From positions 11,466-75,465 of the forward strand of contig JBHHYN010000001.1 in the NCBI GenBank assembly GCA_046757565.1: a stretch of 64,000 nucleotides of DNA, written 5' to 3'. A program made the translations under genes and the position numbers. Below, one piece after another: positions 9,716 to 24,173 of the stretch. The stretch is from Gammaproteobacteria bacterium. GTDB taxonomy: Bacteria; Pseudomonadota; Gammaproteobacteria; Eutrophobiales; Eutrophobiaceae. The notes beneath the pieces were generated by a model. That model made no database searches. It was not told where the DNA came from and saw only the letters and a list, made by a program, of their open reading frames with translations. Numbering within the stretch: the first letter of the stretch is position 1; every line of letters starts with the position of its first letter.

Positions 9716-11086
9716 CTAGGTCAGATTCCTGAATACGCCTATCGCCTGCAGGAAGATCAATATAACGCCGGCAGGGGCAATATAACGGGCAATGAACCGC
9801 CAGATGCCGTAAGTCAGCTTATCCAGATTCAACTCCTCGAAAGAGGAATCTTGCGACATTAACCAGGCACCAAATACGGCGATAAGCAGGCCACCGACTG
9901 GCAACATGATATTTGCCGTTATCGATTCGACCATATTAAAAAACGTCAGGTTAAACAGTTTCTTGTCTGACCAGATATTGAGCGACAACAACGAACCCAT
10001 TCCCAGAACCCAGGCCAAAATTGCTGCATAGCAGCTTGCCTTAACCCGGGTCAGGCCGTGATTTTCAACTAACCAGGCAACTGCCGGCTCCAACAGTGAA
10101 ATAGAAGAAGTCCACCCGGCGAACATCAGCAGTACAAAAAAGAAGGCCCCGAAAAAAGAACCGAATGGCATCTGCCCGAAGGCGATCGGCAATGTTTTGA
10201 AGACCAGACCGGAGCCTTCGCCAGGTTCCAGTCCATAGGTAAAAACGATTGGAAATATGGCCAAACCGGCAAGGATTGCCACCAGTGAATCGGCTGCAGC
10301 AATGGCGCAGGCCATGCGTAGTATCGAAGCCTTGCGGGTAAGATAGGAGCCGTAGGTCATGATCGCGCCCATGCCAAGACTTAAACTGAAAAACGCCTGG
10401 CCAAGCGCAGTCAATAATGTTGAGGGCGTAATGCTACTGAAATCCGGTTTGAAGAGATAGGTAACCGCCCGGGCAAATCCTTCCGTTCCCATGGCATAAC
10501 CGACCAGGACAACCAGCAGAATAAACAGGGTCGGCATCAGATAGCGAACAGCCTGTTCCAGGCCGCTTTTCACGCCGCGGGCGACCACGACAGCAGTGAG
10601 TCCCATAAAAATAGTATGCCAAGCCAGTAACCGCTCCGGATCCTGGATCAATTCATTGAAGACCCTGCTGGAATCACTGGCAGCGGCGCCGTGGAACATA
10701 CCGGCGCCTGTCCTGAAGATATAGGCCAACGTCCAACCGGCTACAACACTGTAAAACGACAGGATTAAAAATCCCGCAACGACGCCCATCCACCCGAGAT
10801 ATTGCCAATGAGAAGAATATCCCTCCTCTGCCGCCAGGGTACGCATGGTGTTGATTGGGCTCTGCCGGCCCCGGCGTCCCAGCATAATCTCTGCTACCAT
10901 GATGGGAATACCCACTAGCAGAACGCATAGCAGGTAAACCAGCACGAATGCCCCCCCACCATTCTCACCGGCAATATAGGGAAATCGCCATATATTGCCG
11001 AGCCCTACCGCCGAGCCTGTGGCTGCCAGGATAAAGGCCCAGCGGGAGGACCATTGACCATGCATGGAAGTTCGTTTCTCAGTCAT
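9716..11086 (-). CDS. Sodium-dependent transporter, neurotransmitter:sodium symporter (SNF) family
   Basis: 456 aa. N-terminal WSSRWAFILAATGSAVGLGNIWRFPY motif diagnostic of the NSS family, about 12 hydrophobic segments. Confidence 0.9.
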   Translation of the reverse strand: MTEKRTSMHGQWSSRWAFILAATGSAVGLGNIWRFPYIAGENGGGAFVLVYLLCVLLVGIPIMVAEIMLGRRGRQSPINTMRTLAAEEGYSSHWQYLGWMGVVAGFLILSFYSVVAGWTLAYIFRTGAGMFHGAAASDSSRVFNELIQDPERLLAWHTIFMGLTAVVVARGVKSGLEQAVRYLMPTLFILLVVLVGYAMGTEGFARAVTYLFKPDFSSITPSTLLTALGQAFFSLSLGMGAIMTYGSYLTRKASILRMACAIAAADSLVAILAGLAIFPIVFTYGLEPGEGSGLVFKTLPIAFGQMPFGSFFGAFFFVLLMFAGWTSSISLLEPAVAWLVENHGLTRVKASCYAAILAWVLGMGSLLSLNIWSDKKLFNLTFFNMVESITANIMLPVGGLLIAVFGAWLMSQDSSFEELNLDKLTYGIWRFIARYIAPAGVILIFLQAIGVFRNLT

Positions 11087-11841: not shown

Positions 11842-12201
11842 GGGGGCGTATTGGCTTCGACGTGGTTCACGAAACCTGAAGGGCATGCCGAGGGGCAGAG
11901 TACCTCGTAAATCCAGCTGCAACACTATAGTTGCCAACAACGACAACTTCGCACTCGCTGCTTAATAACCAGTAGAATGCCGTCTGCCCGATGTGTGCTT
12001 GTGCGCTCGGTTCCAGGCGTCGACTCACACAAGATCGCGATAAAGTCTGTCCGCGACGGATTCGTTAAACTCTTGCGGAATCGTTATCTGCCTTCCCTGC
12101 CGTTCGGGTAGCGGGTAATTAAATTTAAAGAACCGGCTAAGCATGTAGAACTGAAGGCAGAGGTCTCGCGGACGCGGGTTCGACTCCCGCCGCCTCCACC
12201 A
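11842..12201 (+). ncRNA. ssrA: tmRNA (SsrA); tag reading frame 11933-11962 encodes ANNDNFALAA followed by TAA
   Basis: 5' GGGGGCG pairs with 3' CGCCTCC-ACCA, including a G3:U pair. TTCGACG and GGTTCGACTCCCGCC T-arm-like elements. Resume codon GCC, then aac aac gac aac ttc gca ctc gct gct taa. Confidence 0.95.
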
Positions 12202-12213
12202 TTAAAAACACAA

Positions 12214-12240
12214 ACCTCCCTTGTGGAGGTTTTTATTTTT
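12214..12240 (+). terminator. Intrinsic terminator of ssrA
   Basis: acctcc-cttgt-ggaggt hairpin followed by ttttattttt. Confidence 0.7.
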
Positions 12241-12366
12241 AACAGTGGGGATTTGAAACCGTGTCCGGTACGGGCAAATCAAGCGGACAAATCAACAAAT
12301 CCAAGGGGTAAGTATCATAATAGGGTCAGTGTCGAATGATCGTACAAATATTGGTTTATATGATTG

Positions 12367-12618
12367 TCATTCTGCAGAGAAATTATAGGGCCGGGCGAAG
12401 ATAGTGGCAGCGATGCCGGCGTCGACTACGCCATATAGTGAAATGATGATGCTGGATATTCCTGTGCCGGGATGATAACCGTGATAGATCGAGTCCACGA
12501 CTTCGAGAAAATTTACAGCGTAGCCGGGAAAAATCAAATTGGCGCTGCTAACGATTAATAATGCCAACCCTCACAAGATAGCCGCTGCCAGTGCAAGTGT
12601 TTTTATTGACAATTGCAT
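12367..12618 (-). pseudogene. Small (83-codon) hydrophobic protein gene interrupted by an in-frame TGA at codon 16
   Basis: ATG at comp(12616-12618) preceded by a GGGAG Shine-Dalgarno. Reads MQLSIKTLALAAAIL-TGA-GLALLIVSSANLIFPGY..., in frame with the 66-aa track ORF (12367-12567, TTG start). Confidence 0.4.
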
Positions 12619-12833
12619 AACTAAACTCCCGTGGATATTAATTGGATAAGGGACATTATCATTAATTAATTACTGTATTTTATTTGTCATCCTCGTCAAT
12701 TATTTCGCCCTTGATGAGGTTTCCCTGTTCTTCCTGCGATCTCTCTTTTTTCCAGTTGGACAGGATGATGGCCAGCAAGCCGAGGATGATCTCGTCTATC
12801 ATCGGTATCATGTCCGGAATGACGATAAAAGGT

Positions 12834-12996
12834 AACAGATTTATTTTTCATGATCGATAAATACTGGATTTCCATTTTGTCCACGTTGTACGATATGATG
12901 GACAGTATTGCTCAATATCTTCCTCGCCTGCCTCGACATCACGCTTCTCCTTAATCATTTTCTTCAAACATTATTATATCAAAAATAATTTTGTCC
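12834..12996 (-). mobile_element. IR-bounded ~163-bp element carrying a 32-codon ORF that matches the N-terminus of a Y1 (RAYT/IS200-like) transposase (copy A)
   Basis: Ends acagatttattttt (12835-12848) and aaaaataattttgt (12981-12994) are inverted repeats (12/14). Inner ORF comp(12841-12939) = MSRQARKILSNTVHHIVQRGQNGNPVFIDHEK with an AAGGAG SD. A diverged second copy lies at 52613-52941. Confidence 0.5.
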
Positions 12997-13021
12997 ATTT
13001 TCTATTCCTTTTCTCCCCAGA

Positions 13022-13270
13022 AGTAATGAGCTTATTAATGATCATGAAACCCATCTGGGTCTGGGTCATACAGAAGAAGAAAGGCGTTATTTGTATAGGG
13101 AGTTATTTCAAGCGGAACTATCCGAACGGGACATTCATACCATTAGTCATTCGTTCCATTATAACTATCCCCTAGGAAATGAGCGATTTAAAGAAAAGAT
13201 TGAAGAGACATTAAAAAGACAAGTAGGATATGCGAAGCACGGTAGACCAAAGCAACCGACAAATGGTTAA
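13022..13270 (+). pseudogene. C-terminal fragment of a Y1 (RAYT/IS200-like, COG1943-type) transposase
   Basis: Manual translation: ...HLGLGHTEEERRYLYRELFQAELSERDIHTISHSFHYNYPLGNERFKEKIEETLKRQVGYAKHGRPKQPTNG*. No start codon or catalytic N-terminal part. Resembles the C-terminal tail of REP-associated tyrosine transposases as I remember them. Confidence 0.6.
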
Positions 13271-13300
13271 AATTAAATCACTCCGGCCCCTTTTTACTCT

Positions 13301-14770
13301 TCAGGTGCCGACAGGGCGCATGCAGTCAATCAGATCCGCCACGTCTACGCTGGCCAGTCCGGAACTGGTATCCGACGTCGAATAGGGAATGATGAGTTCG
13401 TTGTTATGAAGTATTGCACCGCAGGTGTAGACTACGTTGGGTACATAGCCCTCGCGCTCCTGCTCATGCGGGCTAAGCAGGGGTTTCTCCAACCTCGCAA
13501 TAATGCGGCAGGGATCGTCAAGATCCAGTAGCATGGCACCGATGCAATACTGGCGCATCGGGCCGACGCCGTGAGTCAACACCAGCCAGCCTGCACCGGT
13601 TTCCAGGGGTGATCCGCAGTTACCGATCTGGACAAACTCCCACGGTTTGTCCGGCTGCTGGATCACGCAGGAATACTGCCAGAAGTGCAGATGATCGGAA
13701 TACATGATGTGGTTGTTCTCGCCATCCTGACGGGACAGCATCACGTATTTGCCGTTAATCTTGCGTGGAAACAGTGCCATGCCCTTGTTCTGGACGGCAC
13801 GGCCGTTCAGAGTGATGACCTTGAAACGAACAAAGTCACGGGTTTCGATCAGTTGCGGCAGGATCTTGAACCCATTGTAGGCGGTGTAGGTAGCGTAATA
13901 GGTATTATCGCCGTTGTCGTCGTAGAATTGCACGAAACGGGCGTCTTCAATGCCGCCGCTTTCGTTTTCCGTAGTGGGAAAGATTACCCGTTCACTGATG
14001 GCATGGTCCGGCTGAAATTCCAGTTCATAGTTGGAGTTTGCCAGCCATTTAATGATCTCGAATGTTTCGTGTATCTTCACTACCGGGAACTGCGGCTGTG
14101 CGGACAGATCCTCCAGACGGTGCGTCAACTCGTCATAACTGAACTGCTCCGGCAGGCCGTTGAGCACGCAGGCAGTAATGGCGTTGGCGGCTGACATTTC
14201 ATTCAGCTTGAGCCGGAACAGATGCCGGTCATAGGTCGGGTTCAGACGCCGCCGGGGTGTATCGACATAGTGACCGATCGGATCGAAGAGCATGGTGTTG
14301 TGCTGGTCAATGATACCGCTGCAGAAGATAATCGAGGAGATATGACCTTCGCCGACAGCGCGCAGACTCATGATGAAGCGCAGACAATTGGGACTGAGTC
14401 CATCCTGATTCGGATGCAGCACGATGGAAGGATTAAACAGGGCGGCCGAGGCAACTGAATACTCCATTGTAAAATAGGCGCCGATCAAGGCCCGCTGTGT
14501 TGTACTCAACACCACGTCCCGGGGCAGGTAATCGGCGATAGCCTTGAGGTGCCTCTCGAACACATCGCGGATATTGCGGTGGCGCTCTGAAAAATCCAGC
14601 ATCACCTGTTCCAGCACTTCGTTTGCTTCGGTAGAGGATAATTCCAGTACCCGCTGCGTAAGGCGCCGGATGCGGGTTGCATCACCGGGGAGATGCAGGC
14701 GGCAGATTACATGCGATGCATCGGGCTGGATTTTCCATTTCCGGCGTCGTAATTTAGGAGGTTGTGTCAT
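13301..14770 (-). CDS. GH130-family beta-propeller protein (glycoside phosphorylase/hydrolase-like) with a ~170-aa N-terminal extension
   Basis: 489 aa. The C-terminal 300 aa carry GH130-like blocks (GGIEDARFV, YYATYTAYNG, MALFPRKINGKYVML, GAGWLVLTHGVG, REGYVPNVVYTCG). Confidence 0.75.
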   Translation of the reverse strand: MTQPPKLRRRKWKIQPDASHVICRLHLPGDATRIRRLTQRVLELSSTEANEVLEQVMLDFSERHRNIRDVFERHLKAIADYLPRDVVLSTTQRALIGAYFTMEYSVASAALFNPSIVLHPNQDGLSPNCLRFIMSLRAVGEGHISSIIFCSGIIDQHNTMLFDPIGHYVDTPRRRLNPTYDRHLFRLKLNEMSAANAITACVLNGLPEQFSYDELTHRLEDLSAQPQFPVVKIHETFEIIKWLANSNYELEFQPDHAISERVIFPTTENESGGIEDARFVQFYDDNGDNTYYATYTAYNGFKILPQLIETRDFVRFKVITLNGRAVQNKGMALFPRKINGKYVMLSRQDGENNHIMYSDHLHFWQYSCVIQQPDKPWEFVQIGNCGSPLETGAGWLVLTHGVGPMRQYCIGAMLLDLDDPCRIIARLEKPLLSPHEQEREGYVPNVVYTCGAILHNNELIIPYSTSDTSSGLASVDVADLIDCMRPVGT

Positions 14771-14847
14771 CAGAGAAGCAGGCCCCGCTGTATTATATGA
14801 GATGTGGCTATTGAGTATAGGTCATACCCCGCTCCTGGAAAGGGATG

Positions 14848-15783
14848 CTATAACGCCGATCGCGGTTCGTTCAAGCATAATTGCACCAGGGCCTCGATGG
14901 AGACAGTGCCCGCACACATAACACTATCGGCAGCACCCCAGTACAACTTGATCATGCCGTCCGGTTCGGCCACAGCAGCGCAGCTAAACACTACGTTGGG
15001 CACATAACCGCTGATCTCCCAGGGGTCTTCCGGCTGCAGGATCCAGGGATCGGCCACGGCGATCACTTCTGCCGGGTCCTCGAGCCTGTGCAGCGCGACG
15101 CCGAGGCGGTAGACCGCGCCAGCCATGGTGTTGTACACGCCGTGAAAGATGTTCAGCCAGCCATGCCGGGTCTTGATGGGCGGCGCACCGGGACCGATTT
15201 TCATCTCGTCCCAGTGATAGCTCAGCGTCTGCATGATCCGGCGTGAATCACCCCAATACACCAGGTCCGGAGAATAGGAGATCCAGATGGACCAGGGTGT
15301 CAGATCAGAATGCGGCCGGTCCAGACGTACATAACGGCCGCCAATCTTCTCCGGAAAGATCACGACATTGCGCATATCGGCCTGGCTGATCAGCGCCGCG
15401 CGCTCCACCGTATTGAAATCGCTGGTGCGCGCCAGGGCGATGCGCACACCGTGGCGCGAGTAGGCACTGTAGCAAAGCAGGTAGGCGTCTTCGACCGGGC
15501 AGATACGCAGGTCCTCGACCCCGAAGGCTTCGTATTCGGCAAAGACGCCGTCTTCGGCCGGGGTCAGGAACGGTTCGGGATGAACACGGAAATAAAAACC
15601 ATCGTCACTGTCGGCGCGGCCGATAACGGAACGGCCATTATGCCGGTGCGCGCGGAACAACATGATGTAACGGCCATCGTGCTTGACCACGCCGGCGTTA
15701 TGTACCGTAGCCACCGGATAGGGGACGTCATCACGGGTCAGGATCGGATTTTTGGCGTAACGTTGTACAATCGGCTCTGGCAT
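14848..15783 (-). CDS. GH130-family glycoside phosphorylase/hydrolase (PH1107-related glycosidase type)
   Basis: 311 aa. YAKNPILTRDDVPY...VHNAGVVKHDGRYIMLFR..., GVEDLRI, GGRYVRLDRP, WLNIFHGV, ISGYVPNVVFSCA: canonical single-domain GH130 layout. Confidence 0.85.
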   Translation of the reverse strand: MPEPIVQRYAKNPILTRDDVPYPVATVHNAGVVKHDGRYIMLFRAHRHNGRSVIGRADSDDGFYFRVHPEPFLTPAEDGVFAEYEAFGVEDLRICPVEDAYLLCYSAYSRHGVRIALARTSDFNTVERAALISQADMRNVVIFPEKIGGRYVRLDRPHSDLTPWSIWISYSPDLVYWGDSRRIMQTLSYHWDEMKIGPGAPPIKTRHGWLNIFHGVYNTMAGAVYRLGVALHRLEDPAEVIAVADPWILQPEDPWEISGYVPNVVFSCAAVAEPDGMIKLYWGAADSVMCAGTVSIEALVQLCLNEPRSAL

Positions 15784-15840
15784 ACTGGTTCCCGGCGCAA
15801 TCGCATGGAAATCCGATCATGGGTAATACGGCCGGGCGGA

Positions 15841-17196
15841 TCAAGTCCTGCCGTAATCGTCGGCAAAACGCTCGATATCGTCTTCGCCGAAATAATCGCC
15901 GGTCTGGACCTCGATAAACCTGAGGTTGGAGTGTTCATCGGGATTGGCGATACGGTGGCGCGCACCGCGTGGAATATCCACCGACTTACCGGCTTCGAGG
16001 CGCAGGCAGTGTTCGTCCAACGTCACCTCGCCACGGCCTTCCAGGATCAGCCAGTGTTCGGCACGGCGCCGGTGGCGCTGCAGGCTCAAGCGTTTGCCTG
16101 GATAGACGATGATCTCCTTCGTCTTGTAATCCGGTGCATCGGCCAACACCCGGTAATAGCCCCAGGGGCGGTGCGATTCGCGCGCGGTCTTCCCGATAAC
16201 AGTCTGGTAAACCCGCTGGTAATCGTCAGCCATGCGCTCAACAGAAAAATTCTTTTCTACATGAGCCCGGCAGTCGGCGCGGTTTAACTGATCCAGCTGT
16301 GCAATCGCTGCTGTAGCCTGTTCGACATCAGCAACCAGAAAACCATTAACGCCGTCAAGGATCAATTCAGGCATGCTGCCGCGGTTAAAGGCAACGACCG
16401 GTGTACCACAGGCCATGGATTCGATCACCGCCAGGCCGAAGGGTTCGTTAAACTGGATCGGGTGCAACAGCGCCAGGGCTCCTCCCAGCAACCGGTTACG
16501 TTGCCCGGGCCCGACGCTGCCAAGATACTCGATGTGCCCGGGTTCAAGCAGCGGTTCAACGTAGCGCTTAAAATAGGCCTTATCCTGGATGATGCCGGCC
16601 AGGATCAGTTTTTTGCCACAGGCATGGGCAATACGGATGGCCTCGCACGCACCCTTATCATGATGAATGCGGCCGAAAAACAGCAGATATTCACCGGCTT
16701 CGTCCCTGTACTCGAATTGGCCCAAATCGATGCCGTGGTGTACCGTCGCCAGGTAATTCAACTGTGGCGCCCGATCAGCATCGCTGATGGAAACATAGCC
16801 CACCCGGTCGTTGTACTTCTCGTACACCGGCAGGATACCGGCCGAGGAGAAACCGTGCAGGGTTGAGACAAGCGGGGTGCTGGTCATGGCGCTATAGCTC
16901 AACGGCAGGTAGTCAAAATGATTGTGGATCAGGTCATATTCATCGGCCCGTTCGAACAGGGCCGAGATGTGCAGACATTCCCAGACCTTGGGGATCAAGT
17001 CCCGATCTTCCTCGTAGCCACGGGGGCAGACGGCCTGCAAGGTGCCACTGGTGATCGAGTCGGCGGTAGCGAACAGAGTGACATCGACGCCGCGCCTGAG
17101 TAGTTCTTCACTCAGCAGTGATACCACGTTTTCCCAGGGCCCGTAGTGACGGGGCGGTGTGCGCCAGGCATTCGGCGACAACATCGCAATGCGCAT
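15841..17196 (-). CDS. Fusion protein: GT4-family glycosyltransferase (N) + type-II phosphomannose-isomerase cupin domain (C)
   Basis: N-terminal MRIAMLSPNAWRTPPRHYGPWENVV and a GT4 EX7E region (EPFGLAVIESMACGTPVVAFNRGSMPELI). C-terminal RPWGYYRVL...YPGKRLSLQRHRRRAEHWLILEGRGEV...IPRGARHRIANP...IEVQTGDYFGEDDIERFADDYGR matches the ManC/PMI C-terminal cupin. Confidence 0.85.
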   Translation of the reverse strand: MRIAMLSPNAWRTPPRHYGPWENVVSLLSEELLRRGVDVTLFATADSITSGTLQAVCPRGYEEDRDLIPKVWECLHISALFERADEYDLIHNHFDYLPLSYSAMTSTPLVSTLHGFSSAGILPVYEKYNDRVGYVSISDADRAPQLNYLATVHHGIDLGQFEYRDEAGEYLLFFGRIHHDKGACEAIRIAHACGKKLILAGIIQDKAYFKRYVEPLLEPGHIEYLGSVGPGQRNRLLGGALALLHPIQFNEPFGLAVIESMACGTPVVAFNRGSMPELILDGVNGFLVADVEQATAAIAQLDQLNRADCRAHVEKNFSVERMADDYQRVYQTVIGKTARESHRPWGYYRVLADAPDYKTKEIIVYPGKRLSLQRHRRRAEHWLILEGRGEVTLDEHCLRLEAGKSVDIPRGARHRIANPDEHSNLRFIEVQTGDYFGEDDIERFADDYGRT

Positions 17197-17199
17197 GGG

Positions 17200-19533
17200 T
17201 CAATGTCCGCTGGTAGAAGCCGCCGGTATCCCGGCATGATGCAGCGTCTGCTGTAGAACTTCCTCGGCAGACAGCCGCTGCAGGGCCGTCAAGGAGAGTA
17301 ACCAGGCCAGTGTGGATTCGGCACCCTCATTCTGGTTCACACCGCCACTTTGCAGACCGTCGCGGCAACCGCCAGTGCCGGCGTCATACAACGGCAGGCG
17401 CAAGTCGTTCTGGCCCAGGAACCAGCTAAAACACATTTTGGCCTGGTCGATCCAATGTTGTTCACCGGTCAGGCGGAAGGCCTCAATACTGGCCTCGATG
17501 AGGGACTGGGCCTCCAGCGGTTGCTGGTCAAAACGGGCCTTGTGACCGCCTTTGGTATACCAGCCACCATTACCAATGGGGACCAGGTGGCCGTCTTCGG
17601 TCTGGATCTGCAGCAGCCAGTTGAGTGCACGCAAGCCCATATCAGTCATGTCATCGCGCTGCATCCACTGGCCGGCCAACAGCAGGGCATGGGGCAGTTT
17701 ACCGTTAGCATAAGTCACGATGTCTTCCGGCCATGGCCAGCTGTCGCTGGCATGACTGGCAAACTGGCCAAACAATCTCCCCGTCAGCCGCTCGCTGATG
17801 CGGCGCGTTTCCGAGTCTCCAGAGAAGACCTCCAGGTAAGCATGTATGCCCATCAGCGAAAGGGCAACGGCCCGTGGCGAGTTAAATACAGCGGCCGCTG
17901 GCAGTGCCCGTTTAAACAACTGTAGAGCCAGCGGCTGTTGCACGGCGCGATCAAGCAAGGGAACGGCCGTACCCAGCCCCCACAAGGCGCGGCCGTGTGC
18001 ATCTTCCGAGCCGGCCGCTTCCAGCCAGCGCCGGTCATAGTTCATGAAGTTCCGGAGGCGGCCGTTGTCCGGGTTAAACGCGTGCAGTAGAAATGCCAGA
18101 TAACGGTTACACAGATCATCCAGCGCTGTCGTATGACCGGGCAGCAGGTGGCGGACCCGGGTGGCGACAATCAGCGCCCGGGCATTGTCGTCGGTGCAAT
18201 AACCGTGATTACGCTCGGCGATCGTGTATTTAGCATGTTGCAGCAGGCCGGTATCGTCGGTCAGAGTGCGCAGATGATCGAGTTTTAGTTCAGGTAATTC
18301 AACGCTGGTGACAGCCTCGCGTTCATGCCGTGGCGACGGCTTATGTGGACTTGGCTTCCAGGCACGCTCGTGTTTCACCTCGTTGAATACATTCAGGTAC
18401 TTTCCCGCCACTTTTTCCCAAACCATTTCGCGGCAAAAATCGTAAGCATTTTTGCGCAGCACATGGCGCTCGGCATCATCATCGAGCAGATCAATGATCG
18501 CGGCCGTCAACGCCTGGGGATCACGGAATGGGACGAGGCGACCACGGCCGCCGGCAAGCATTTCCCCGGCATACCAGTAAGGGGTTGAGATCACCGCCTT
18601 ACCGGTGCCCATGGCGTAGGCCAGGGTGCCGGAGGTAATCTGCGCCTCGCTGGTATAGGGCGTAATGTACAGATCGGCCGCGGCCAGGTATTTGCCCAAT
18701 TCCTCCTGTGTCACAAAGCGGTTCTGGAAGATAACGTATTGTTGCAGGCCCAACTTGGCGACAAGCTGTTGCAGGCCGATCCGGTAGGATTCTCCTTCCT
18801 CCCTTAGTACATGGGGGTGGGTGGCGCCCAGAACGATATAGGCCACACCAGGATGCCGCGCGATGACTTCCGGCAAGGCCTGCAATACATACTCGATACC
18901 CTTGTTCTGGGAGAGCAGACCGAAAGTCAGCAACGCTTTTTTACCGAGCACACCGAACAGGTCCTTATAATAGTTCGGATCCACAAAGGGCAGGTCCGGG
19001 ATGCCATGATGAATAAAGGTAATTTTTTCTTCCGGCACGGCGTAGACATCGCCCAGGATTTCGACGGCCTTGTGACTCATAACCACCAGCTTCTCCGACA
19101 ATCCGGCCAGGCGGTTCATCACCGCCCGGTATTCCTTGTCCGGGTCAGCCAATACCGTATGCAGGGTCGTCACCACCGGCATGCGTAATTCGGCCAGCAG
19201 TTTCAAAATATGGCCGCCGGCGGGGCCGCCGAAGATACCATACTCATGTTGCAGACAGACGATATCAACCTGGTTGATATTGAGAAACTCGGCGGCCATC
19301 TGATAATCGGCGAGCCGGTTCTGATTGATCTCGAAGTGGACCTTTTCCGGATAGGGGTAACCTTCGGGCCTGTCGTTCATCACCATCGTCCAATACTGGA
19401 TGCTGCTATCCCTGGCCGATAGCGCCTCCACCAGATCGGTCGTAAAGGTGGCGATGCCGCACTGGCGAGGCAGGTAGTTGCCGATAACGGCTACGGTATT
19501 GATTAAATCATGATTGGTTCCGATGGGGACCAT
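17200..19533 (-). CDS. Large GT4-family glycosyltransferase with a ~370-aa C-terminal domain of unknown function
   Basis: 777 aa. The N-terminal half has GT-B/GT4 blocks (LGATHPHV..., ITPYTSEAQITSGTLAYAMGTGKAVISTPYWYAGEML). The C-terminal half is Trp/Leu/Ala-rich, helical-looking, with no motif I recognise. Confidence 0.75.
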   Translation of the reverse strand: MVPIGTNHDLINTVAVIGNYLPRQCGIATFTTDLVEALSARDSSIQYWTMVMNDRPEGYPYPEKVHFEINQNRLADYQMAAEFLNINQVDIVCLQHEYGIFGGPAGGHILKLLAELRMPVVTTLHTVLADPDKEYRAVMNRLAGLSEKLVVMSHKAVEILGDVYAVPEEKITFIHHGIPDLPFVDPNYYKDLFGVLGKKALLTFGLLSQNKGIEYVLQALPEVIARHPGVAYIVLGATHPHVLREEGESYRIGLQQLVAKLGLQQYVIFQNRFVTQEELGKYLAAADLYITPYTSEAQITSGTLAYAMGTGKAVISTPYWYAGEMLAGGRGRLVPFRDPQALTAAIIDLLDDDAERHVLRKNAYDFCREMVWEKVAGKYLNVFNEVKHERAWKPSPHKPSPRHEREAVTSVELPELKLDHLRTLTDDTGLLQHAKYTIAERNHGYCTDDNARALIVATRVRHLLPGHTTALDDLCNRYLAFLLHAFNPDNGRLRNFMNYDRRWLEAAGSEDAHGRALWGLGTAVPLLDRAVQQPLALQLFKRALPAAAVFNSPRAVALSLMGIHAYLEVFSGDSETRRISERLTGRLFGQFASHASDSWPWPEDIVTYANGKLPHALLLAGQWMQRDDMTDMGLRALNWLLQIQTEDGHLVPIGNGGWYTKGGHKARFDQQPLEAQSLIEASIEAFRLTGEQHWIDQAKMCFSWFLGQNDLRLPLYDAGTGGCRDGLQSGGVNQNEGAESTLAWLLSLTALQRLSAEEVLQQTLHHAGIPAASTSGH

Positions 19534-19784
19534 TCGCTTTCCTGACTATCCGTTATATTGTCTTTTGAGTAGCATGAATATGGGGGCAAACAGGCATAAT
19601 TCAAGGCGTTCCGAGCGCCGGTGATGGAGTTTATCCACCACCTGCCCGGTTAATTATGATGGCGGCATTCTGTTTCTGCAGAGGGTCTTAACCACCACGA
19701 TACTCTCGTAACCGTGCCATCTTGCAAGGCATCAGGGAACATGGATGCCAGCAAACACGACCCTCACTCGCCAACTCCGATCTG

Positions 19785-21319
19785 TCAGTAATAGCTGAGA
19801 CTCCTGGGCAACAGGTACCGCTCCGCAACTTCAAATATCCCCTGTACCAACAGTGCTAACACGGCGGCCGGGACCGCTCCCTGCAGGATCAGGCCAATAT
19901 CGTCGAGGCGGATACCGGTCAGTATAGGCTGACCATAACCTCCCGCACCAATCAGCGCGGCGATTGTCGCCGTGCCGACATTGATCACCGCTGATGTCTT
20001 GATACCGGCGAGTATGGAACGGGTGGCAAGTGGCAGTTCCACGAGTCGTAAGCGGGCGTTGCTGGATAAACCCAAGGCCTCTGCAGATTCCAGGATTGGT
20101 GTTGGGATGTCACGCAGTCCACTGTGTGTATTACGGATTATTGGTAACAGACTGTAGAGAAAGAGCGCCACAACTGCCGTGGTCCGCCGATACCCAGCAT
20201 GGGAATAAGCAGGACCAACAACGCCAGCGAGGGTATTGTCTGGACCATCCCGGCAACAGCAAGAATGATCTGACCTGCTTCCCTGTAGCGTGCAGCGATG
20301 ACACCGAGCGGGATAGCACAGGCAATGGCCGCGGAGAGAGATATCCCGACCAAAAACAGATGATCCAGTGTATTCCTGACAAACCGCTCAAAAGCCGTGT
20401 CAGTTATTGTTGCTATGGAGATGCCGTAATTGGTCTTTATGAAGTTCGCCACCACAGTGGCCATAGGCAGATGATCGATCTTGACCGCAGCGTTCAGCGC
20501 CCTCATCTGATTGACATTGATACTCCCCGGCAACCTCTCGAGCGCCTGCAAGGCCAGGGGATAGCGTTTCACAAGCCCGGAACGGTAGATAAAGACCGCA
20601 TCATAGGCGGGAAAATAGTGCCGATCATCGGCAAGCGGTTGCAGATTATAGTAGAGGATCTCCGCGTCCGTCGCATACAAATCAGTAACATCCAGACTGC
20701 CGTTTTCCACACCTCTGTAGGCAAGATCGTGATCCAGTCCACGAACATTCCGTTGCGGTAATTGATAATGATGTTTCAGCCCCCGCCAGCCATCCGCCCG
20801 ATCCAGGAATTCATTGCTGAATCCGAACCTGAGTCCGGAGTAACGGCGCAGATCCGATATGGAGCGAACATCGAGTTTTTCCGCCAGCGATCCCGGCATA
20901 CCGATAACATAAGTATTATTAAATCCCAGCGCCTGGGTCATACCTATACCCCGAACGGCCATCACTTCACGCAGCCGTTTGCTACTATGGATCTCCTGAT
21001 CGGCAAATATTTCCTGCATGAGTGTGCCCGTGTATTCTGGATAAATATCAATTTCTCCGGCAAGCAAGGCACTCCACAAAACCCGCGTGCCCCCGAGTTC
21101 GGCCCGGGTTTCAACCGGAATATCGTGATAACGGAAAAACTGCGCGGCAAGTTCCCCCAGGATCACACTTTCGGTAAATTTCTTCGAGGCGACAATGATT
21201 CCGTGGTGTCTATTTTCGTACTTTGGAGCGGAGCTACCCGCACAGCAATAAAACATCCAGACGAACAGATAGAAAAAATAACGGAGAGAATGCTTCATTG
21301 TTCTTCCAGAATCTGCCAC
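19785..21319 (-). pseudogene. Fused substrate-binding + permease component of a glycine betaine/choline-type (OpuBC/ProWX-like) ABC importer, split by a 1-nt frameshift near 20185
   Basis: ORF 20138-21319 has a signal peptide, a betaine-type SBP domain and the first permease helices, ending ...LIPMLGIGGPRQLW.... ORF 19785-20171 continues the permease in another frame (..TTAVVALFLYSLLPIIRNTHSGLRDIP...EALGLS...) with the EAA loop. Confidence 0.7.
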
Positions 21320-22041
21320 GGGTTCCGTTGCGCATTGATAAAAGATTCTACAAACGCATCGGCCGGCTGGTGCAATAAATCATGTAATGTTCCCCGCTGC
21401 ACAACACGGCCGTCACGCATTAACACGATATCATCACCAAAGTAGGCCGCCTCTCCCATATCGTGAGTTACCAGCACCACCGTTTTATGCAAGCACTGAA
21501 AAATATCTTTCAGATCCTGTTGTAATTCATAACGAATCATCGGATCAAGTGAGCCCAGCGGTTCATCCAGTAACAATAGTTCCGGATCCAGCATCAATGC
21601 CCGCATAAGGCTGACACGCTGGCGCTGACCTCCGGAAAGTTCAATGGGGTATTGATTGAGCATCGATGGCGTCAGTTTTACCAGGTGAGTCAGTTCAGTC
21701 AGGCGTTCATTCAAGCGTGTCACGTCCCAACCGAGATATCTGGCCATGATGGTAACATTCTCCGATGCCGTCAGATGCGGAAACAGCCCCCCATCCTGGA
21801 TCACATAACCGGCACGTTGTCGAAACCGGTAGACATTAGACGTATTAATTATTTCATCATCAAAAGAAATCCTGCCTGTATCTGCACTAATAAGACCGAT
21901 CATGAGTCGCAGCAGGGTCGATTTTCCGCTGCCGCTTGGCCCAATCAGGACAGTTGTCTTTCCCTCTCCGATAGTTAGTCCGGTGGGATGAAGTGCCTGA
22001 TTGGCCCCATAGCGCTTGCTGATGTTAGCCAGTTTAAACAT
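21295..22041 (-). CDS. ABC transporter ATP-binding protein of the betaine/choline importer (no CBS domains)
   Basis: Walker A GPSGSGKST, Q-loop, signature LSGGQRQRV, Walker B LLLDEPLGSLD, H-loop VTHD. Overlaps the start of the downstream SBP-permease gene. Confidence 0.9.
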   Translation of the reverse strand: MFKLANISKRYGANQALHPTGLTIGEGKTTVLIGPSGSGKSTLLRLMIGLISADTGRISFDDEIINTSNVYRFRQRAGYVIQDGGLFPHLTASENVTIMARYLGWDVTRLNERLTELTHLVKLTPSMLNQYPIELSGGQRQRVSLMRALMLDPELLLLDEPLGSLDPMIRYELQQDLKDIFQCLHKTVVLVTHDMGEAAYFGDDIVLMRDGRVVQRGTLHDLLHQPADAFVESFINAQRNPWQILEEQ

Positions 22042-22371
22042 TATCCAGGTAATAACCTGTAATTTGGCCCGGTTGCTGGCAAGATAATTTGATTATCCAT
22101 TGGGTATCAGAAGATGTTTCAATTGCTTTTTGGCCCACCGTGCCCCAAAAAACCCGGCAAGATACAATATAGTGATGAAATAACCACTGCCGCAAGACCT
22201 GATGTTAGCAAAGTATAGAACTAAAGGAGAAAATCTAAACTTACTTCCCGAATTGCCGATTAACTATAATCAGGAGGCAATAGTTCTTAAGTACGGAGAA
22301 CGAGAATCGCCCCAAGTCCAACAGACTGTTAAGCCATATTGATAACATTGTAAAAATAACCGAGAGTCGGA

Positions 22372-22896
22372 ATGTCAAAGCCCGGTCATTCATTTCCCTA
22401 TGATGCATTCGTCATTATCATACTGATAATCGTCTCTGGCGGTTCTATCGTGGCAGCCCTGTCCCTGGTTGAAGAACTTCTTTATTTTGCCGATCAATTT
22501 GCTTTCCTGATTTTTTTAAGCGCCGATGCGGCAGCATTAATATTTGCCATTCTGGCCGCATTTTTCAAATTCGAACAAAATGAGTCTGAGATAAAATCCC
22601 GGGCTTCCCTGGAGAGGGCAAAACAATTGGAAGAACGGGGCAAAGATGATGAAAAAATCGGCAAGGCGATATTAATATATAAAAAGGAAGCCCAGAACAA
22701 GTCCACTTCGTCAAGGAAGTTTTCCAATCTGTCGAGTATAGCGGTTAAAGGAGCATTACTGAGTATACTAACCGGATTTATCTTTTTGATTGTATCCCTC
22801 TGGGTTACTCCGGTTTCCAATATGATGGCTACCAGTCCAGTTACTGAAAGCGGGGAAATCTCTGTTGATAACGATGAAAACGCTACTGAGGAATGA
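22372..22896 (+). CDS. Hypothetical membrane protein (2 N-terminal TM segments, charged central helix, 1 C-terminal TM)
   Basis: 174-aa ORF in an AT-richer stretch. Hydrophobic segments FVIIILIIVSGGSIVAALSLV, FAFLIFLSADAAALIFAILAAFF and LLSILTGFIFLIVSLWV. No recognisable family. Confidence 0.45.
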   Translation: MSKPGHSFPYDAFVIIILIIVSGGSIVAALSLVEELLYFADQFAFLIFLSADAAALIFAILAAFFKFEQNESEIKSRASLERAKQLEERGKDDEKIGKAILIYKKEAQNKSTSSRKFSNLSSIAVKGALLSILTGFIFLIVSLWVTPVSNMMATSPVTESGEISVDNDENATEE

Positions 22897-22913
22897 TTCA
22901 TTCCCTTTACAGG

Positions 22914-24173
22914 TTAATTAATAAAATCTTCGCGAATCAGGAATTTCCTTTTTTTCAGTTGAGACCTGGCCTCCCTGGTCAATATACCTGCTGTGACAAG
23001 TTCCCAACTACTGAAACCCGCCATACCTGCCTTTTTTAACAATCCATCAAATAAACGTTCTGTTCTTTCCGACCAGTAAATAATGTCCACCGGGGCCAGA
23101 TAGACTATACGATTATCCGATGTGATTATCTGCAAGAGTTCGTTTCCTGCATATAATTTCTGCAAGCTGATTATATGCTGATGATAATACGCGAGCATCA
23201 TGGCAGCTTCTTCAAAAGTCAGCGCCATGCTCTCGTCTTCAATACCTATGGACGCCTCTATAAATGCTGAACGGTTCCTTACCCCATCAAGCAAGTTTAA
23301 ATAATGAGTGATTCTTGTCTTGTGACGGGGGGAATAAATAGCATGTTGAAGAAATTTTGCACGAATATCCTGGCGAATATTCATAGCTTCAAGCAATTTA
23401 TTATTAATTAGATTAAGATCCGCTATACTTTTGCTCTTTAATAACGCATTAATCCCGGACTCTAATTCAGGGTTAATAACCTTTATCGATTTCCCTGCCC
23501 GCACTCCCATCAAAGGCGACCCTGAGGAAATTATGCCTGCAGATCGAGCCCTGGCAACGGCGTTCAGAAACTCCTGCACTTTCGGATTTGTTGAATACAC
23601 GTCCAAACCCCATTGACTGGCAATATTACGCTTATGCATGGCCGTAACCGGGTCAGCTGACTCTCCGCCCGTATAACTAAAGACCACTTCCGTATCACGA
23701 GGTGTTGCGTTTAGCGTTTCATTCAGATTACTCGTTATCTGCCCCGCCAGATTGGTCGCCATCGACACAGGCCGGGCAATAATATCCAGGGCGGAATCGG
23801 CACTTATTCGTAATTGGCCCCGAATCTTATTGAGTAATTCTCCATTTTGCGCGTTAAACTGGTTTATCGCATGTCCCAGAGTAGTGATCTCTCTGACCCG
23901 GATCCGCAATAATGGCAAGGAAGTCACCTGATACACGCCAAAATCCGAATCGATACGGAAATTGAAGAAATTACCTCTGATATCAGCCTCTTCTACACGG
24001 TGATAGACTGACTGCGCCTGGACCGGGGTCAGAATATCGTGCAAATCTATTTCAGGAATGACTTCATAGGCGCCGGAATAAGGACAATTTAATAAAAGGA
24101 AAAGGGTTAATCCGTGACGGCATACGTGTCTACTTCCCCTGCTCTGCATCATTAAGGCCTTGATTGATTTCAT
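22914..24173 (-). CDS. Hypothetical secreted/periplasmic protein
   Basis: 419-aa uninterrupted ORF with a signal-like N-terminus (GLTLFLLLNCPYSGAYE). No motif I recognise. AT-richer than its surroundings by eye. Confidence 0.5.
   Translation of the reverse strand: MKSIKALMMQSRGSRHVCRHGLTLFLLLNCPYSGAYEVIPEIDLHDILTPVQAQSVYHRVEEADIRGNFFNFRIDSDFGVYQVTSLPLLRIRVREITTLGHAINQFNAQNGELLNKIRGQLRISADSALDIIARPVSMATNLAGQITSNLNETLNATPRDTEVVFSYTGGESADPVTAMHKRNIASQWGLDVYSTNPKVQEFLNAVARARSAGIISSGSPLMGVRAGKSIKVINPELESGINALLKSKSIADLNLINNKLLEAMNIRQDIRAKFLQHAIYSPRHKTRITHYLNLLDGVRNRSAFIEASIGIEDESMALTFEEAAMMLAYYHQHIISLQKLYAGNELLQIITSDNRIVYLAPVDIIYWSERTERLFDGLLKKAGMAGFSSWELVTAGILTREARSQLKKRKFLIREDFIN

Follow-up and report, generated by a model that had tools for sequence, protein, structure and literature searches.

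The nearest published counterpart of the locus described here is a twelve-gene cluster of Thermoanaerobacter sp. X-514 that includes an ABC sugar importer, a GH5 enzyme and, as Teth514_1786-1789, a GT4 transferase, ManC, and two GH130 β-1,2-mannoside phosphorylases (Chiku et al. 2014, PMC4264767). A second point of reference is the mannogen cycle of Leishmania, in which a cytoplasmic β-1,2-mannan reserve is both synthesized and phosphorolysed by GT108 enzymes, the MTPs, which have a GH130-like fold and act as GDP-Man transferases (PMC10913872). In mycobacteria, the methylmannose polysaccharide cluster provides a precedent for self-priming, as the GT4 mannosyltransferase ManT is paired with the (α/α)6 hydrolase MmpH, which recuts the intracellular polysaccharide into primers (PMC9883506). 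Last, the cyanobacterial glucosylsucrose synthase TeGSS (tll1591; PDB 7fg9 and 8x3q) adjoins a sucrose-phosphate synthase and carries no cupin (PMC9909042).

The window, a 64,000-nucleotide stretch of a gammaproteobacterial contig, contains on its minus strand (13301-19533) four co-directional sugar-handling genes, all of them intact, full-length open reading frames. GT4X (17200-19533; 777 aa) combines a GT4 domain with an (α/α)6-barrel domain, GT4b-cupin (15841-17196; 451 aa) joins a GT4 to a phosphomannose isomerase (PMI)–type cupin, GH130s (14848-15783; 311 aa) is a single-domain GH130 and predicted β-mannoside phosphorylase, and GH130L (13301-14770; 489 aa) is a GH130 with a family-specific N-terminal region. 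The gaps from GT4X to GH130L measure 3, 57, and 77 nt. An earlier note, made from the sequence of this stretch, had described four tightly spaced genes of these lengths as two GT4s and two GH130s; the open reading frame coordinates agree with that layout, and the family assignments were upheld by Pfam profile matches. We found no signal peptides or membrane segments in the four proteins (maximal 19-residue hydropathy ≤1.44), and all four are predicted to be cytoplasmic.

Like the Thermoanaerobacter cluster, the cassette places two adjacent β-1,2-type GH130 genes beside a GT4 and has a link to mannose 1-phosphate. GH130s matched PF04041 over its full length (7e-52; 176.7 bits versus a cut-off of 26), as befits the canonical GH130 that the earlier note had taken it for, while in GH130L the match (1e-34; 120.4 bits versus the same cut-off) covered residues 259-485 alone. 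The N-terminal extension noted before in GH130L is real, but instead of 170 aa it comprises ~260 residues with no detectable GH130 sequence homology, which are extra in comparison with the Teth514 enzymes and were found in the GH130L family only. In the AlphaFold model, this region consists of helices (31-99), β strands (101-176), and a helical insert (182-244), and the modeled strands may supply the first propeller blade; pLDDT falls below 50 at residues 323-386, the region of the L2 loop. Among 8000 candidates scored in a protein collection, the best 120 homologs of GH130L were ~490 aa long and 66-71% identical.

Phosphorylases were distinguished from hydrolases by a catalytic Asp accompanied by basic phosphate-binding residues (Lys or Arg-Asn, Arg, His, Tyr), hydrolases having Glu bases, with residue roles taken from PMC12814180 and PMC10913872. 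In an alignment, GH130s carries RN, DRP, KIG, HGV, and YRLG where Uhgb_MP has its phosphate site, and GH130L has E275, D276, K329, R347, H400, and Y408, all invariant among 30 homologs. Thus, the check for phosphate-binding residues proposed earlier returned phosphorylase-type sites in both proteins, which we predict to be phosphorylases rather than hydrolases. The motifs GVEDLR in GH130s and GIEDAR in GH130L contain the Glu-Asp pair of β-1,2 enzymes as opposed to the Tyr-Asp of β-1,4 enzymes, and this Glu before the Asp, the signature of GH130_4 and GH130_6, assigns both to the predicted β-1,2-mannoside type. The best PDB match of GH130s was TM1225 (5e-57), to which it lies nearer overall than to the Teth514 proteins, followed by β-1,2-mannoside phosphorylases; the best matches of GH130L were the β-1,2-mannoside phosphorylases Teth514_1788 and Teth514_1789, its closest solved relatives, together with Lin0857 and Uhgb_MS. 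Because both proteins reach just 152-230 bits against NCBIfam equivalog cut-offs of 450-550, they fall outside the characterized ortholog groups. In Uhgb_MS, E136 precedes the catalytic Asp, and R242 stabilizes the nucleotide diphosphate and favors the use of GDP-Man (PMC12814180). An Arg equivalent to R242 and an open L2 loop served as the marks of a bifunctional transferase/phosphorylase. GH130L has at this position Q381, invariant in the 30 homologs, which may count against GDP-Man use, and GH130s has Lys there.

The transferase part of GT4b (residues 1-335; 16192-17196, minus strand) was matched by PF00534, PF13692, and PF13439 and carries the GT-B profiles and the GR..KG and EX7E motifs that define GT4. 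It aligns end to end with TeGSS (E = 6e-80; ~45% identity as read off the alignment); the catalytic residues Y18, R179, and K184 are conserved along with the glutamates of EX7E, and the motifs FGRIHHDKG and EPFGLAVIESMA line up. As features of a TeGSS ortholog we took UDP-Glc as donor, sucrose or glucosylsucrose as acceptor, a Trp10 that stacks on fructose, and an adjacent sucrose-phosphate synthase. In GT4b, this Trp is shifted by one position, and no sucrose-phosphate synthase neighbors the gene. Characterized relatives of GT4b use UDP-glucose as donor, and we consider glucosyl transfer as likely as mannosyl transfer; therefore, a purely mannosyl product, as assumed in the earlier note, is not established.

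The cupin fused to this transferase (residues 336-451; 15844-16191, minus strand) is, as the earlier note had it, of the PMI type. PF01050 (MannoseP_isomer) matched residues 337-446 at 1.6e-32 (112.6 bits versus a cut-off of 23.6), Cupin_2 matched as well, and the motifs RPWG, SLQRH...AEHW, and HR are present, which we take to be the metal- and substrate-binding motifs of the type II PMI cupin. On the basis of profile and motifs, we classify the domain as a type II PMI cupin and predict PMI activity.

The GT4 domain of GT4X (residues ~1-390; 18364-19533, minus strand) was matched by PF13439, PF00534, and PF13692 over residues 26-365. K211 is invariant, 37 of 39 sequences have E296, and an invariant Tyr306 replaces the second Glu of EX7E; because this canonical Glu is absent, the donor is uncertain. 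GT4X is thus probably a GT4 with an atypical donor site, its CAZy membership resting on similarity. Among solved proteins, the two cassette transferases are both most closely related to PimA and MshA.

The C-terminal domain of GT4X (residues 391-777; 17203-18363, minus strand) had been described as unassigned, and indeed Pfam gave no match for it, nor did a sequence search of the PDB return GH76 or MmpH. Structure prediction, which the earlier note had recommended, yielded an (α/α)6 barrel of twelve helices (AlphaFold; pLDDT 75.7, pTM 0.81). Its structural neighbors, all mannose- or mannan-active enzymes or epimerases apart from an uncharacterized top match, were 7tem (Z 30.5), GH76 (Z 23-27), cellobiose 2-epimerase/AGE (Z 24-26), and MmpH (Z 21.4), the last with no homology found at the sequence level. 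For a GH76/MmpH-like enzyme we considered sequence membership, paired catalytic acids within the first loop between helices, and a distal carboxylate. The invariant D58-D59 and D279/E284 of the domain (GT4X residues 448/449 and 669/674) may lie at positions comparable with D47/D50 and E262 of MmpH, a comparison drawn without residue-level superposition. The marks of AGE or cellobiose 2-epimerase are a catalytic His pair and a conserved Arg at the barrel center; H30, H43, and H259 are invariant and are candidates for such a pair, and the domain could be an epimerase instead of a hydrolase. The domain family, with 5022 representative clusters, occurs both as standalone proteins of ~360 aa and in fusion with GT4 (~760 aa). 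The top structural match, YPO2471 of Yersinia pestis (7tem), is also the sole sequence relative in the PDB (profile search, 1.6e-15) and shares a DD-x-AR-A motif with GT4X, but it is a standalone "putative exported protein" without a published function.

The neighborhood analysis suggested earlier showed that the order GT4X–GT4b–GH130s–GH130L is kept, at 50-77% identity, across many phyla and dozens of genomes, while the flanks are not; cultured carriers include Desulfosarcina alkanivorans PL12, Pontiella sulfatireligans F21, and strain NaphS2. By tblastn, it was retained in nearly all 46 loci of at least 12 kb, with domain identities of 48-77%. Four loci lack the short GH130 (L061, L062, L064, and L070, the last of which also lacks GT4b), extra genes lie inside the cassette at L042 and L069, and the upstream end is cut off at L004. 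Clustering of open reading frames from 40 loci of at least 15 kb revealed the cassette genes as the only common ones (40/40, 40/40, and 38/40), the commonest flanking family being found in 9 of 40. Of the fusions called unusual in the earlier note, that of GT4 with the (α/α)6 domain is the rule in its family. The literature search found no paper tying the cassette to a product, in line with the earlier note, whose author knew of no characterized pathway with exactly this architecture; its conservation across phyla, its island origin, and the fold of the GT4X C-terminal domain are new.

The cassette resides in an island beside the tmRNA gene ssrA (11842-12201, plus strand; ARAGORN, tag ANNDNFALAA). 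In a relative (G009, locus L098), the tmRNA is followed directly by a homolog of the window open reading frame at 22914-24173, so the window has an insertion of ~10.7 kb (12202-22900) 3' of ssrA. Besides the cassette, this horizontally acquired segment holds decayed remnants (12202-13300), a 174-aa ORFan, and an OpuA-type importer (OpuAC, permease, and ABC ATPase; 19785-22041). No copy of the cassette was found in the 60 relatives searched, of which 36 belong to the same family, and GC3 in the cassette is 0.67-0.72 versus 0.45-0.60 in native neighbors. Neither an integrase nor att repeats remain in the island, and no direct repeat of at least 12 bp with the tmRNA 3' end was found. The four-gene set moves as one unit between phyla and was inserted here at ssrA. 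The betaine-type importer to which the earlier note had drawn attention does adjoin the cluster, but it is split by a frameshift into two frames and occurs in 0 of 80 related loci; it is incidental island cargo.

Taken together, we give about even credence to the cassette being a self-contained, horizontally mobile, cytoplasmic system that synthesizes an internal oligosaccharide or glycoside containing mannose, probably as a reserve or stress-protective carbohydrate, and recycles it by phosphorolysis. The two retaining GT4s would join nucleotide sugars into an α-linked core or chain, with GT4b, by analogy with glucosylsucrose synthase, most likely forming α-1,2 links from UDP-Glc or GDP-Man. 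The (α/α)6 domain of GT4X would trim or re-prime the chain as in the ManT/MmpH pair, although here both functions would sit in one protein, methyltransferases are missing, and GH130 phosphorylases are present. The two GH130s, which differ in architecture, probably also differ in chain-length or acceptor preference, like Teth514_1788 and Teth514_1789. They would act on β-1,2-linked mannose, attaching it or, as is more probable in vivo, cleaving it off with phosphate to give α-mannose 1-phosphate, which phosphomannomutase and the PMI cupin of GT4b could link to fructose 6-phosphate. The host genome has a genuine ManC, and GDP-mannose is therefore available. GT4 enzymes are retaining and hence unable to form the β-mannosidic bond that GH130 cleaves. 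Since the cassette has no inverting transferase, this bond would require a GH130 acting in reverse or with GDP-mannose, and the known transferase activity of GH130 is weak (PMC12814180). The earlier idea of building and recycling a β-mannosyl compound is supported in part, by the β-1,2 and phosphate signatures and the hexose-phosphate links, but not by the retaining GT4s.

A bolder version, which we put forward tentatively as a possibility, is a portable "glycan battery" used by many anaerobes and acquired by this host through transfer. The GT4-(α/α)6 synthase-trimmer and the α-1,2 transferase would build a helical intracellular oligosaccharide, which the GH130 pair, one with its 260-residue N-terminal module, would cap and uncap or drain via mannose 1-phosphate. 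If true, bacteria would have their own equivalent of the mannogen rheostat of Leishmania, its product being a hybrid α/β glycan not previously described. The two share propeller enzymes with an active site of Asp, Lys, Arg, His, and Tyr and the Man1P-Man6P-Fru6P link; in contrast to the MTPs, the cassette enzymes are GH130s with intact phosphate sites and are accompanied by two retaining GT4s.

The product might instead be a small compatible solute, a Man/Glc di- or trisaccharide or heteroside made under osmotic or heat stress and later phosphorolysed, as the earlier note itself had imagined. The glucosylsucroses made by the relative of GT4b are stress solutes (PMC9909042), and genes of stress type recur near the cassette, namely FtsH, GroEL, and a PAS-containing sigma-54 activator, which speaks for the preferred reading as well. 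We nevertheless regard this as unlikely, as two unlike phosphorylases and an (α/α)6 domain of an endo-acting type suit chains better than one disaccharide, no phosphatase is linked, although one is usual in solute pathways with phosphate intermediates, and the link to the osmoprotectant importer is incidental.

Catabolic salvage as in Thermoanaerobacter, where the GH130s would split imported β-1,2-mannosides into mannose 1-phosphate that feeds GDP-mannose to GT4s making unrelated glycoconjugates, would agree with the β-1,2 signatures and phosphate sites and with the composition of that nearest published cluster. However, in the flanks of the 40 loci of at least 15 kb, the cassette has no conserved transporter, secreted glycosidase, or ManC, and the sole importer nearby is the broken one unique to this genome. 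Moreover, so strict a linkage of the four genes from phylum to phylum speaks for GT4s and GH130s acting on one molecule, and we judge salvage to be quite unlikely.

We hold still less by a role in envelope or protein glycosylation, in which the GT4s would decorate a lipid, polysaccharide, or protein and the GH130s would edit or recycle the glycan. GT4s are common in LPS, EPS, and glycolipid synthesis, weak NCBIfam matches to such enzymes were obtained, and PimA is the best PDB match of the GT4X transferase domain. Against this, the same flank survey showed no linked flippase, polymerase, priming transferase, or lipid-carrier gene, the proteins lack membrane segments, GH130 phosphorylases require cytoplasmic phosphate, and the carrier phyla, among them Chloroflexota, Desulfobacterota, Kiritimatiellota, and Zixibacteria, have very unlike envelopes. 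It is highly improbable that the cassette is silent cargo, unexpressed or decaying in this genome, for despite the eroded island, the frameshifted importer, the lack of a clear ribosome-binding site (no obvious Shine-Dalgarno sequence) at three of the four genes, and the status of this copy as the most diverged (branch 0.49 versus a median of 0.084), the last two of which also weigh against the preferred reading, all four reading frames are full length and 91 of 97 and 179 of 190 family-invariant columns are kept, including all catalytic residues.

The preferred reading, synthesis and phosphorolytic recycling of an internal glycan, also draws on the variant loci. In L006 and L013, a PGM/PMM-family mutase separates GT4X from GT4b, and an SIS isomerase lies within the cassette in L042 and L069, which ties the cassette to hexose phosphates; in such hosts, these genes would take the place of the phosphomannomutase and PMI cupin route. 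The cupin fusion itself, in keeping with the earlier description of it as unusual, is a minority trait found at 7 of 81 loci, the window included, with a patchy distribution that is not monophyletic.

The cassette consists of four minus-strand ORFs, GT4X (17200-19533, 777 aa), GT4b (15841-17196, 451 aa), GH130s (14848-15783, 311 aa), and GH130L (13301-14770, 489 aa), separated by gaps of 3, 57, and 77 nt; these coordinates agree exactly with the four co-directional genes of the earlier note. Its family assignments were also upheld, as both Pfam and NCBIfam supported GT4 in GT4X and GT4b, a PMI-type cupin (PF01050) at the end of GT4b, and GH130 in GH130s and GH130L. Residues ~390-777 of GT4X and 1-258 of GH130L had no family match in either database. 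Signal peptides and membrane segments are absent from all four proteins. PADLOC gave no match to anti-phage defense systems, and such a role of the cassette was ruled out.

We found that the four genes form a unit conserved across phyla. GH130L typifies a large family: a protein search gave at least 8000 candidates at E <= 0.001, and among the 8000 scored, the best 120 have lengths of ~490 aa and share 66-71% identity with the window protein. Scanning one genome per species yielded 80 related loci from Desulfobacterota, Zixibacteria, Ignavibacteria, Chloroflexota, Lentisphaerota, Kiritimatiellota (Pontiella sulfatireligans), Latescibacterota, Acidobacteriota, and others. Using the window domains as tblastn queries, we found that the order GT4X - GT4b - GH130s - GH130L was kept, at 48-77% identity, in nearly all 46 loci of at least 12 kb. 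Four of the exceptions lacked the short GH130, one of them also GT4b; two carried extra internal genes, and one ended early on the upstream side. ORF calling and clustering on the 40 loci of at least 15 kb showed that the only families common to them were the cassette genes (40/40, 40/40, and 38/40), while the commonest flanking family occurred in 9/40. Thus, the gene neighborhood, whose conservation the earlier note had proposed to analyze, is conserved within the cassette but not in its flanks. Recurrent, non-obligate neighbors included a sigma-54 activator with PAS, an ABM protein, a B12-radical SAM enzyme, FtsH, GroEL, and a transglutaminase-like protein. No conserved sigma-54 promoter was found upstream of GT4X (one weak match in 40 loci), and sigma-70 and terminator scans did no better than chance. 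In 5 of the 40 loci, tRNA genes, all different, lay less than 3 kb downstream of GH130L (Ala, Arg, Pro/Leu, Met, and Phe in L007, L015, L035, L038, and L060, 0.5-2.4 kb past the gene). Together with the tmRNA gene in the window, this suggests repeated island-type insertion.

In the window, the cassette lies next to ssrA. The relative G009 has the order btuD - ratA - smpB - tmRNA - homologue of the window ORF 22914-24173 - cNMP/rhodanese gene; by synteny, the window therefore carries an insert of ~10.7 kb (12202 to ~22900) directly 3' of ssrA (11842-12201). The insert contains the cassette together with 1.1 kb of gene fragments, an importer of the OpuA type that is split, and an ORFan of 174 aa. 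Searches of 60 relatives, 36 of them from the same family and most >90% complete, did not find the cassette, whose GC3 is 0.67-0.72 versus 0.45-0.60 for native genes. Direct repeats of att type, copying at least 12 bp of the 3' end of the tmRNA, were looked for and not found. For this genome, a clean ssrA-linked acquisition is documented. The 1.1-kb stretch that separates GH130L from the tmRNA gene (12202-13300) holds short ORF fragments only, one of them a C-terminal piece like REP/IS200-type Y1 transposases (…GNERFKEKIEETLKRQVGYAKHGRPKQ), with no integrase left. Within 22372-24173, a 419-aa ORFan is native, because homologues with 42-44% identity occupy the same position in the relatives G009 and G008; the 174-aa ORF beside it was not found in the examined stretches of four relatives. 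Between ratA and smpB, which directly adjoin in G009 (L098), the window carries an SNF-family (sodium:neurotransmitter symporter) gene (9716-11086), possibly the product of another, independent insertion.

The betaine-type ABC importer belongs to the ssrA island. Its fused OpuAC-permease gene (19785-21319) is read in two overlapping frames, 20138-21319 and 19785-20171, consistent with a frameshift. Because the OpuAC/permease gene was found in 0/80 related loci, the adjacency of an osmoprotectant importer, previously taken as a clue to function, is coincidental, and as island cargo the importer was ruled out as a functional partner of the cassette.

To read the GH130 pair, we aligned both proteins to solved enzymes using published residue roles (PMC12814180 and PMC10913872). 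In GH130L, E275-D276 form the Glu-Asp pair known from beta-1,2-specific enzymes, and K329, R347, H400, and Y408 occupy the four phosphate-contact positions, all six residues being invariant in 30 homologues. Its sole deviation is an invariant Gln381 at the position of Uhgb_MS R242, a residue that weighs more in GDP-Man transfer than in phosphorolysis. The nearest overall relative of GH130s is TM1225, a beta-1,4 enzyme; its alignment shows Glu-Asp instead of Tyr-Asp, and the phosphate-site positions hold RN, R, K, H, and Y. The residues by which phosphorylases were to be told from hydrolases are thus present in both proteins and, combined with the Glu-Asp pair, lead us to predict that both are phosphorylases of beta-1,2-type mannosides; their scores lie far below the NCBIfam equivalog cut-offs. 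The best Foldseek matches of GH130L were beta-1,2 phosphorylases. Sequence-detectable GH130 homology in GH130L begins at ~259-269, and its AlphaFold model (mean pLDDT 69.7, poor at 323-386) shows residues 31-99 as helices and 101-176 as strands, followed by a helical insert (182-244). The strands may form the first blade; hhalign of residues 1-268 against the first blade of GH130s gave no alignment, so this placement comes from the AlphaFold model only. With the N-terminal 255 residues, a PDB search was empty and the Atlas gave only same-family fragments; judged by sequence, the region is unique to the GH130L family.

The transferase part of GT4b matched over its whole length (E 6e-80, with identity of roughly 45% as read from the alignment) the Thermosynechococcus glucosylsucrose synthase TeGSS (PDB 7fg9/8x3q), a UDP-glucose:sucrose alpha-1,2-glucosyltransferase whose products are helical stress oligosaccharides (PMC9909042). 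The second-best relative was a UDP-glucose:tetrahydrobiopterin glucosyltransferase. GT4b retains the catalytic Tyr18, Arg179, and Lys184 of TeGSS, whereas the fructose-stacking Trp is shifted by one residue. This homology moves the reading off a purely mannosyl product. PimA and MshA are only distant relatives of the GT4X transferase domain, which keeps K211 and E296, with an invariant Tyr306 replacing the second EX7E glutamate. A similar Tyr occurs in bacterial GT5 glycogen synthases, and Tyr306 by itself thus does not have to argue against a nucleotide-sugar donor.

The remainder of GT4X (residues 391-777), here called the C-domain, had been left unassigned, and its structure is now modeled as an (alpha/alpha)6 barrel (pLDDT 75.7, pTM 0.81). 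Its family comprises 5022 clusters at 50% identity, standalone or GT4-fused; no Pfam family matched it, and a scan of 30 homologues at E up to 1 gave a chance match only. The sole PDB match of a profile from 30 homologues was 7tem (1.6e-15), the uncharacterized YPO2471 of Yersinia pestis, which has the DD-x-AR-A motif in common with it. An exhaustive structural search gave Z 30.5 for 7tem, 23-27 for GH76 alpha-mannanases, 24-26 for cellobiose/glucose/mannose 2-epimerases and isomerases, and 21.4 for the methylmannose-polysaccharide hydrolase MmpH; the named neighbors act on mannose-type substrates in every case. The architecture of GT4X recalls the mycobacterial pairing of ManT with MmpH, which recuts an intracellular polysaccharide to give primers (PMC9883506). 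From the model, the C-domain is a candidate hydrolase, transglycosylase, or epimerase. A literature search gave no product assignment for YPO2471 or 8X3U.

Several features link the cassette to hexose phosphates. The GT4b cupin retains type-II PMI motifs and is fused in 6/80 loci and the window. A maximum-likelihood tree of GT4b does not place the cupin-fused forms in a single clade, and the fusion was therefore gained or lost repeatedly. In L061 (4880-4984), a 35-residue cupin remnant, 48% identical to cupin residues 11-45 of the window, directly follows an unfused GT4b and is a trace of fusion loss. Two loci carry a PGM/PMM-family mutase of 501-517 aa between GT4X and GT4b (L006:6115-7620, L013:6261-7814), whose best NCBIfam match, far below cut-off, was the archaeal-type GlmM model. 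Variant cassettes (L042:5915-9867, L069:5882-9867, L070:417-3255) have an added sub-module, inserted internally in L042 and L069, that encodes a SIS sugar-phosphate isomerase, a PIG-L-family deacetylase, a further GT4, and a GH100/GDE_C/MGH1-like (alpha/alpha)6 protein; such genes may point to a branch for amino sugars or for an additional glycoside. Homology of the last protein to the C-domain was ruled out (hhalign probability 0.4%), and the split GT4 of these loci is related to GT4X only as a generic GT4. A genuine ManC is encoded elsewhere in the host genome.

The best-supported reading, to which we give an even chance, is a portable cytoplasmic module that makes and turns over an alpha-linked oligosaccharide or glycoside. 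The GT4s would assemble this compound, the GH130 pair would turn over beta-1,2-mannosyl residues via mannose 1-phosphate, and PMI and PMM functions would connect this turnover to fructose 6-phosphate. The chief weakness of this reading is the beta-mannosidic bond, for which the cassette has no inverting transferase, so that reverse phosphorolysis or weak GDP-Man-dependent GH130 transfer would be needed. In the literature searched, which extended to GH130 enzymes in connection with compatible solutes and with Desulfo* organisms, the product of the four-gene set is assigned nowhere. The closest known systems each match the architecture in part only; new here are the GT4b-TeGSS homology, the structural placement of the C-domain, the accessory mutase/isomerase genes, the residue-level GH130 analysis, and the exact ssrA insertion. 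The cassette is among the most strongly conserved uncharacterized carbohydrate gene sets of sediment and subsurface bacteria. Its product, once defined, would show what PDB 7tem, the Pfam-less (alpha/alpha)6 family, and a large GH130 clade do, and test for a mannogen-like phosphorolytic carbohydrate cycle in bacteria; oligosaccharide synthesis might also gain new phosphorylases and an alpha-1,2 transferase.

Among the alternatives, a small compatible solute as the product is unlikely, if the least so; the relationship of GT4b to a stress-oligosaccharide synthase fits it. Salvage of exogenous mannosides is improbable. Envelope glycosylation by the GT4s is more improbable again; the absence of membrane segments speaks against it. 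That the cassette is silent cargo is very hard to credit. The window copy is the most diverged, with a GT4b terminal branch of 0.49 against a median of 0.084 (~6x; maximum-likelihood tree), and its proteins alter 6 and 11 columns invariant in 29 other homologues (control median 1); every catalytic residue is nevertheless retained, as are 91/97 and 179/190 of the columns invariant in the family. The long branch and the altered columns thus point to faster evolution after transfer or to an unsampled donor lineage.
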